Assembly: GCF_056746865.1 (NCBI RefSeq)
Contig: NZ_CM163382.1
Reading direction: 5' to 3' (one strand)
Length of the DNA: 64,000 bases
Position numbers: made by a program. Position 1 is the stretch's first letter, and every line of letters starts with the position of its first letter. Positions 34,878-36,266 of the stretch are shown one piece after another.

Positions 34878-36266
34878 CCCGGCGATAGTACATTTCTTCT
34901 TTCAGGTGACCAAAGAAATTCTCCATTACCGCATTATCAAGGCAGTTGCCCTTGCGCGACATGCTCTGCACTAACCCTTTGTCTGCCAGGGCAGACTGAT
35001 AACTTTTTATCCGGTAATGCCACCCTTGATCACTGTGGAGCAGCGGTTTTTCTCCTTCTGCAAGGCTTTCCAGCCCCTTATTTAACATGCGCTTCACCAG
35101 CTCCTCTGTAGGCCTGCAGGCAGTTTCCCACGCCACGATTTCCCCGTTAAACAAATCAAGTATCGGGGACAGGTACAGTTTTTGTCCGCCAGCCCTGAAT
35201 TCGGTGATATCTGTCACCCATTTCTCACAGGGAGCTTCCGCTTTGAACTGCCGCTGAAGGATATTTTCTGCAGCGAGTCCCATATTTCCCCGGTAAGACC
35301 GGTATTTCTTCAGGCGCACAGGAGACTTCAGGCCGAGCTGTTGCATCAGTTTTCGCACTGTTTTGCCACTGAACTTAAGACCTCTTTTCTGAAGCTCACA
35401 ATGGATCCGCCGGTACCCATAACATCCCCGGTGTTCATGGAAGATGGAGGCTATGAGCTGTTTCACATCAGCATACTTGTCCTTAGCCTTCTGCAGTGAC
35501 AGCTGGTAGTACAGCGTGCTTCTGGCCAGCCCTGCAGCCTTTAACAGGTCAGACTGGCAGTGTCCGCACCTCAGGCTCCGGATGACTTTCGTTTTTTCTC
35601 CAGCTCCTGGCGCTTTTTTTCCAGGAGATGCTCCTGCATGGCTTTCAGATATGCATTTTCTGCGCGAAGATAACGCAGCTCATTCTTCATCTCTTCCGGC
35701 GTCATGTTTGCCTCGTTTTCATGGGTATCATCAGAACGGGTCATACTTTTCTCCTTCCTGCGCCTGATAAAGGCCTCATTACCAGATTTGCGGTAGCCTT
35801 TTATCCAGTTTTTAACCGTGTTGTGGCTGGGAATGTTAAACCGGGCAGCTACCCGGGGTAGAGACTCAGAATGCCCGAGAGCATAAAGAACCACGCAAAG
35901 TTTATCTTCAGGAGAATAGCTACGCTTGTGTCTGCAATCCAGTGCCCGAGGACCGTGAAGAAGAAAAAGATTAATCCAGTGTGAGAGGCTGGTGTGAGAA
36001 AGTTGAAAGAGTTTTGCCGTAGAAATGATGCCTGCATGACCAGCCAGGTAATGATTTACAGCGGCAAGTTTTACTTCAAATGAATGTTTCATAAACTGCA
36101 CCTTCAGATGTCAGATTATGTCCAACATTTGGGGTGCAGTTCATGGCGCGTCTTATCAGGCCTACGTCGAGTCGAACCTCCCTGCCCCCGGAGGTTCTCA
36201 TCCTCATGAGCTACAAATGCAAAAAAGCCTGCTCGCTGAGCAGGCATTTCGAATTTGGTCGGTGAT

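Follow-up and report, generated by a model that had tools for sequence, protein, structure and literature searches.

The repeats closest to the element described here belong to a family named tRNA-linked repeats (TLRs), traced to Egan and Landy (1978) and Rudd (1999), of which Escherichia coli K-12 carries 22 members, distributed over ten loci that hold between one and five each (Stenum et al., 2021; PMC8144298). [quoted passage not shown] The unit downstream of proK is known as rpK, a name from Rudd 1999 and EcoGene that is also used by Stenum et al., whose strain table includes delta(rpK) = delta(3706471-3706638), of 168 bp (PMC8144298). The proK unit is thus named already, and it is catalogued both as a family and as a locus; the motif that we describe below is real but ordinary.

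Two groups of relatives are useful for comparison. The first are rrA, rrB and rrF, situated between the dual terminators of rrnA, rrnB and rrnD, with the order gene, first terminator, TLR and second terminator, as at proK in K-12, and ending like the K-12 proK unit in a copy of 18-19 nt of the 3' end of the gene (PMC8144298). They differ in having been shown to be expressed by read-through and, in vitro, to bind both Hfq and CsrA, whereas in a prediction of CsrA regulators all 19 TLRs of tRNA operons scored below 0.01 (PMC8144298). The second is the RtT repeat of tyrT/tyrV (RF00391), a 178-bp unit present 3.14 times, which has the same architecture as the proK unit and a homologous core. Its hairpin, GAACCUUC/(G)AAGGUUC, matches the T-arm of tRNA-Tyr in the same way as the hairpin described here matches that of tRNA-Pro. 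However, the tyrT spacers lack an intrinsic terminator, so that the units are co-transcribed with the tRNA, while the proK spacer has a strong one; besides, the last tyrT unit shown is followed directly by an unrelated flank with no further hairpin, unlike what is found at proK. The RtT/TLR family is without established function. As a parallel for a partial copy we also considered rsW' of K-12, a partial TLR downstream of serW, and set it aside, as it is a fragment of the terminator type without a T-arm hairpin.

The motif downstream of proK

The stretch of DNA analysed (hereafter the window) is 64 kb long and contains proK, the gene of tRNA-Pro(CGG), at 36256-36332 on the minus strand (ARAGORN; Rfam tRNA match of 60.7 bits). 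A consensus scan detected a promoter-like site ahead of it (TTGACG, 17-nt spacer, TAAGAT; 36345-36373, minus strand), and the terminator scan, together with an inverted repeat, an intrinsic terminator behind it at 36221-36245 on the same strand, with an 8-bp stem GCCTGCTC/GAGCAGGC (36227-36245) followed by TTTTTT. This terminator is also the first part of the spacer of the repeat unit. Along the tRNA strand the order is therefore promoter-like site, proK, terminator and motif, with a REP unit directly after. In K-12, proK is monocistronic with a short leader, and its primary transcript of ca. 113 nt has its 3' end at the terminator (Mohanty et al., 2016; PMC5291269), which puts the motif beyond the normal end of the transcript.

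A reading of the sequence alone (from here on the sequence-only reading) had reported, ca. 50 bp 3' of proK, a palindromic fragment resembling a tRNA T-arm. [quoted passage not shown] The string quoted for it, gagTCGAACCTCCctgcccccGGAGGTTCtc, is present on the plus strand, although at 36169-36199 and not at 36176-36212, a shift of ca. 7-13 nt. The 10-bp identity with proK was also confirmed, since TCGAACCTCC occurs in the motif (36172-36181) and in the T-arm (36274-36283) in the same orientation, and exactly twice in the 64-kb window, against 0.08 expected by chance (none of 100 shuffles gave two matches). The direct match extends to 12 of 13 nt (GAGTCGAACCTCC vs. GATTCGAACCTCC). Equally real is the 8-bp inverted repeat, GAACCTCC at 36174-36181 and GGAGGTTC at 36190-36197, perfect and with a loop of 8 nt; the hairpin is kept in the predicted minimum-energy fold, with a modest fold z-score of -2.1, and the motif can be called a structured element.

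What the sequence-only reading had missed is the nature of the other arm. At 36189-36205 the whole T-arm of proK is present in inverted form (GAGGAT-GA-GAACCTCCG on the minus strand), complementary at 15 of 17 positions to 36268-36284, the stretch of the gene that is the template of the motif. Local alignment with the antisense of the proK 3' end extends this similarity over 27 columns (with 20 matches, 6 mismatches and one gap), and it continues, more weakly, to about 36214. The sense copy, at 36172-36189 on the minus strand, aligns GGGGGCAGGGAGGTTCGA with GGGGTC--GGAGGTTCGA of the tRNA, that is, with the 5' half of the T-arm, and the similarity reaches into the variable loop. The relationship with the T-arm thus comprises a direct and an inverted copy, and between them they build the hairpin GAACCUCC, loop GGGGGCAG, GGAGGUUC (36174-36197, minus strand; inverted repeat, folds and RNAalifold), the one that forms the first branch in RtT/TLR units. 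Five more nucleotides, CTCGA at 36167-36171 on the minus strand, are by alignment to K-12 those with which the conserved RtT core begins.

The scan for terminators found only that of proK, and there is no run of T after the motif hairpin, so that the combination of a GC-rich stem and a U-run that defines an intrinsic terminator is absent. No promoter was found near the motif by the consensus scan. An open reading frame of 43 codons (36076-36207, minus strand) starts at ATGAGGATG inside the motif; we took it as spurious, since in the window its frame runs into REP and IS1397 sequence. Arginine-rich frames with a comparable start are seen, by our own translation, in the K-12 proK unit and in the tyrT repeats.

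Identity with the K-12 rpK unit and variation in E. coli

In K-12 the order along the tRNA strand is proK, a spacer with the terminator, the motif CATGAGGATGAGAACCTCCGGGGGCAGGGAGGTTCGACTCGA, a core of ca. 60 nt, AATCCTCTATCACCGACCA, the spacer with its terminator again, the motif again, and REP. The segment AATCCTCTATCACCGACCA is the last 19 nt of proK (AATCC...CCA). In other words, K-12 has the 168-bp unit (rpK) 1.64 times and the window only the 0.64 part, in which the terminator is followed by the hairpin of antisense and sense T-arm copies and then by just 5 nt of core. According to the alignment (A1), taking exactly one unit of 168 bp out of K-12 gives the window. The window shares with rpK the locus and orientation, the terminator-bearing spacer ahead of the motif, and the sequence of the motif itself, which is identical to the first ca. 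42 nt of the unit; it differs from rpK in having neither the core of ca. 60 nt nor the 19 nt copied from the proK 3' end. Past CTCGA the homology to full units is lost, the window continuing with CGTAGGCC and K-12 with GCGAAGCG. The columns of the motif are identical to both K-12 copies and invariant in Citrobacter and Enterobacter (alignment A1), as expected of the 5' module of a TLR. The window allele is a natural counterpart of the engineered 168-bp delta(rpK).

The Rfam model RtT (RF00391) matches the K-12 unit (L001 1613-1746) with 101 bits and E = 2e-21, the match beginning with the motif, which corresponds approximately to positions 14-53 of the RtT alignment. RefSeq annotates an "RtT sRNA" at the K-12 unit, and likewise between proK and REP in many complete E. 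coli genomes. In the window the model gave no match between 33900 and 36600 at E up to 10, and none anywhere at the gathering score (45 bits), because the core and the second 19-mer are missing. Accordingly, a search of the window that allowed as many as 3 mismatches did not find the core (whose hairpins are GAGCG..GCGAGA, CGTTGC..GCAACG, GCCC..GGGC and a variable stem), and at the same tolerance AATCCTCTATCACCGACCA is single in the window, where it is proK itself; the 3'-end hallmark of TLRs is present in K-12 and absent here. We have assigned the motif to RtT through its near-identity with the K-12 units and not through an Rfam score of its own. On this comparison of sequences it is classified as a fragment of an RtT/TLR member, not a full member. 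The other Rfam matches in the window, at 26180-26245, 26663-26728, 47529-47956 and 48239-48390, were two rdlD (ldr/rdl locus), the cspA thermoregulator and sok (hok/sok locus).

We surveyed 5,426 complete E. coli genomes with a sensitive search, using as query the hairpin plus terminator (93 nt). This block was present in 5,422 of them, at 8,175 places (1-5 per genome), while the RtT core was found in 2,668 (2,956 places, 1-4 per genome). About half of the complete genomes therefore have no full unit, like the window, and the others have from one to four, although some of the assemblies without units could be collapsed tandem repeats. Copy number thus varies by whole units, as indicated by the 1-5 copies of the hairpin with terminator and the 1-4 copies of the core. 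Even within the K-12 lineage, MC4100_0.05s (L130, NZ_CM168052.1) lacks the 168-bp rpK unit in a sequence otherwise identical to K-12, which reflects either a recent recombinational loss or a collapse of the assembly. In strain 3CM (L125 2880-3175), a divergent allele of the spacer and terminator, similar to those of Citrobacter and Enterobacter, is found between proK and an unchanged motif. Differences among strains are also seen further away: in some (L124 8118-12245, L125 5207-6042) the lpf operon of long polar fimbriae lies just beyond eptB, and in its place the window has a homolog of the MFS transporter yhjX (38439-39692) directly after eptB.

A full unit is flanked by direct repeats of 108 bp, and homologous recombination between these could convert alleles with and without the unit into each other; the window allele would most likely have arisen by loss of one unit. 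A loss is suggested by the presence of full proK units in three other genera, which serve here as outgroups; judged from these rather than from a tree, the sequences favour a unit lost over one never gained. Taken as a whole, the best explanation is that the motif is a terminal, truncated copy of the proK TLR, most likely left by the loss of a unit and most likely inert today, and we consider this explanation very probable.

REP, IS1397 and genuine integration at proK

The motif has repetitive neighbours of a different kind. Directly abutting it at 36166 is one half, the right one, of a REP palindromic unit that belongs to a BIME (36144-36166, recognized by its sequence and by comparison with the intact BIME of K-12 and with L126, from strain 2013C-3033). 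Next comes IS1397, an IS3-family element of 1,432 bp with ends TGAACTG...CAGTTCA (34712-36143, minus strand; RefSeq annotation of a 99.9% identical locus, and ORFs). It is complete, with a two-ORF transposase with frameshift, and the loop of the REP unit is its insertion site, with the TGGC target duplication at 34708-34711 and 36144-36147. Beyond it lie the rest of the BIME, consisting of one whole palindromic unit and the left half of the split one (34645-34711; a weak naRNA4 match of 29 bits and comparison with K-12, whose intact BIME matches naRNA4 with 69 bits), and then dppA. According to the indexing of PMC1525189, REP palindromic units are the target of IS1397, and the insertion at the REP on the proK side is common to 218 of the 5,426 genomes. 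Sitting in the REP loop, the transposase beside proK is unrelated to the tRNA and not a part of the repeat.

Given this adjacency, and as BIME sequences have been mistaken for rtT before (PMC2965389), the motif might be taken for a piece of the neighbouring REP/BIME or for a chance palindrome. However, it has no REP consensus and is not always accompanied by REP: the internal copy in K-12 is followed by the RtT core and not by REP, and in Citrobacter werkmanii REP comes after the terminator without the motif. Chance alone would give the pair of 10-mers only 0.08 times. We find either origin scarcely conceivable.

The sequence-only reading had favoured neither of two interpretations, a simple structured element or a vestigial duplication of the tRNA 3' end, the scar of an att site from a lost integrative element; it had added that the latter would fall if the motif were conserved in all strains with no association with integrated elements. 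That is what the comparison of proK flanks across E. coli gave. The hairpin and terminator are near-universal (5,422 of 5,426 genomes), island or not, and no association with elements integrated at proK was seen. Nevertheless, the idea of a scar is not without basis. proK is a genuine integration site, as illustrated by strain 2013C-3033, in which an integrase-bearing, P4-like satellite or island of ca. 14 kb is found directly 3' of the gene (L124/L126; NZ_CP027323.1, about 3858200-3872692), with genes for the integrase, Rha, an Icd-like protein, Ash, DUF927 (primase-like), SSB, ProQ/FinO, PerC and antiterminator Q. Furthermore, the 19-nt copy of the tRNA 3' end in full TLR units is superficially attR-like, and the motif has in common with att repeats of this type that it is a partial tRNA-derived sequence 3' of the tRNA gene.

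Yet the differences are decisive. Integrases duplicate the 3'-terminal segment of the tRNA gene in direct orientation, so that the copies bracket an integrase element; in the motif it is the 5' half of the T-arm that is copied, together with an antisense T-arm, and it brackets a terminator only, with no integrase remnant between proK and the motif in the window. The 3'-terminal 19-mer is single-copy in the window and the direct repeat is confined to the 5' side of the T-arm loop. In 2013C-3033 the far junction (attR) is a degenerate copy of the last ca. 20 nt of proK, and after it come the native terminator, the motif and an RtT unit; real integration at proK thus uses the 3'-terminal segment and takes place upstream of the block of terminator and hairpin, which is native flank. 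The same architecture appears at operons of the tyrT and lysT type in several genera, and no phage or true plasmid with the element was found. The matches filed as phage or plasmid, which would have pointed to a mobile carrier, were rejected as chromosomal contigs or pieces: in Klebsiella nar genes adjoin the match, as at the E. coli tyrT locus, and in Arsenophonus the neighbours are tolB-pal-ybgF. The junction in 2013C-3033 and the universality of the motif together refute the reading as a scar, and we regard such an origin as very unlikely. In practical terms, this prevents a false "att scar" annotation at proK, as the motif is no mark of a lost island.

Cognate tRNA matching and the question of function

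To look at RtT units elsewhere we scanned 298 Gb of genome contigs with the pattern TCGAGCGN{1,3}GCGAGANANCG. It was too permissive: 108 of the 120 matches listed were outside the Enterobacterales, mostly in GC-rich genomes, and were presumed, uninspected, to be due to chance, leaving at least 12 usable loci from Enterobacterales. Among the matches listed, units follow tRNA-Tyr in many genera, tRNA-Pro(CGG), as full units, in Enterobacter, Citrobacter and Pluralibacter, and tRNA-Lys(UUU) in Acerihabitans and Moellerella; these three partners are a sample and not a census. The core is shared by the units, while the antisense segment, the sense half of the T-arm and the 3' 19-mer each have as best match, at the loci listed, the cognate one of the three tRNAs, with the exception of one degenerate unit from Moellerella. 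The core sits in the T-loop just after TTCGA, at tRNA position 57/58 (in our own numbering), and ahead of it there is an antisense copy of the T-arm and of the 3' acceptor strand of the same tRNA.

Two Citrobacter genomes, C. werkmanii (L029 375-560, minus strand) and Citrobacter sp. FP75 (L058 1015-1200, minus strand), contain a near-complete tRNA-Tyr gene with the RtT core inside its T-loop, exactly after TTCGA. Both of these interrupted genes have a tyrT-like leader and a decayed 3' acceptor strand, and they sit upstream of two intact tRNA-Tyr genes / tyrT.

These comparisons suggest, tentatively and at odds that we would put rather low, that TLR units of the RtT type are tRNA-templated modules of regular design, matched to their cognate tRNA and with the core placed in the T-loop of a tRNA 3' half. 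Along the tRNA strand, a full proK unit consists of the terminator spacer, the antisense T-arm, a loop, the sense 5' half of the T-arm up to TTCGA, the core (ca. 60 nt, conserved, with four small hairpins in the predicted folds) and, last, 19 nt identical to the end of the tRNA. In the accessible TLR/RtT literature we found no description of a cognate-matched antisense and sense design, and this might be the only part of the finding that is new.

As RNA, the motif hairpin of a full unit would be the first branch of a multi-branch structure closed by a helix in which the antisense segment pairs with the 3' end derived from the tRNA. RNAalifold, applied to 13 units, predicts this outer helix, the motif hairpin as first branch and four hairpins in the core, and the minimum-energy fold of K-12 rpK alone has the same outer helix, motif hairpin and core hairpins. 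Among the 13 units, 13 pairs overall have changes on both sides; pair 25-36, in the motif hairpin, is CG in five of them and UA in five. We consider this covariation weak as evidence of function, as the copying of both arms from the same tRNA may explain it. In the window the remnant has no partner for the closing helix and stands behind an efficient terminator, for which reasons it is most likely inert.

The opposite case can be made for a partial unit that works in cis, its antisense T-arm pairing with the T-arm of the tRNA in read-through transcripts and so marking or misfolding them, or its hairpin having a protective or processing role. The motif is in essentially all E. coli and is invariant across spacer alleles and genera while the adjacent terminator diverges; such identity, kept despite the replacement of the spacer in 3CM, could mean that the partial unit is under selection and not inert. 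[quoted passage not shown] However, the proK transcripts of K-12 end at the terminator (PMC5291269), the hairpin has neither a U-tract after it nor a promoter nearby, its fold z-score is modest, and its invariance can be accounted for by recombination with the tRNA gene and full units. A cis-acting element of this kind appears improbable to us, and we retain the interpretation as an inert remnant of a proK TLR.

For the window itself the finding carries little weight, being the remnant of a catalogued family of repeats. For a family without known function, the fact that about half of the complete E. coli genomes are naturally devoid of rpK provides a ready natural experiment. And if the cognate-matched design were true, the units would either arise from copies of tRNA genes or stay matched to them by recombination, and even the solo remnant in the window would keep an antisense segment of 17 nt able to pair with the T-arm of proK in read-through RNA. 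The design would in this way offer a concrete, testable hypothesis for both the origin and the function of TLRs.
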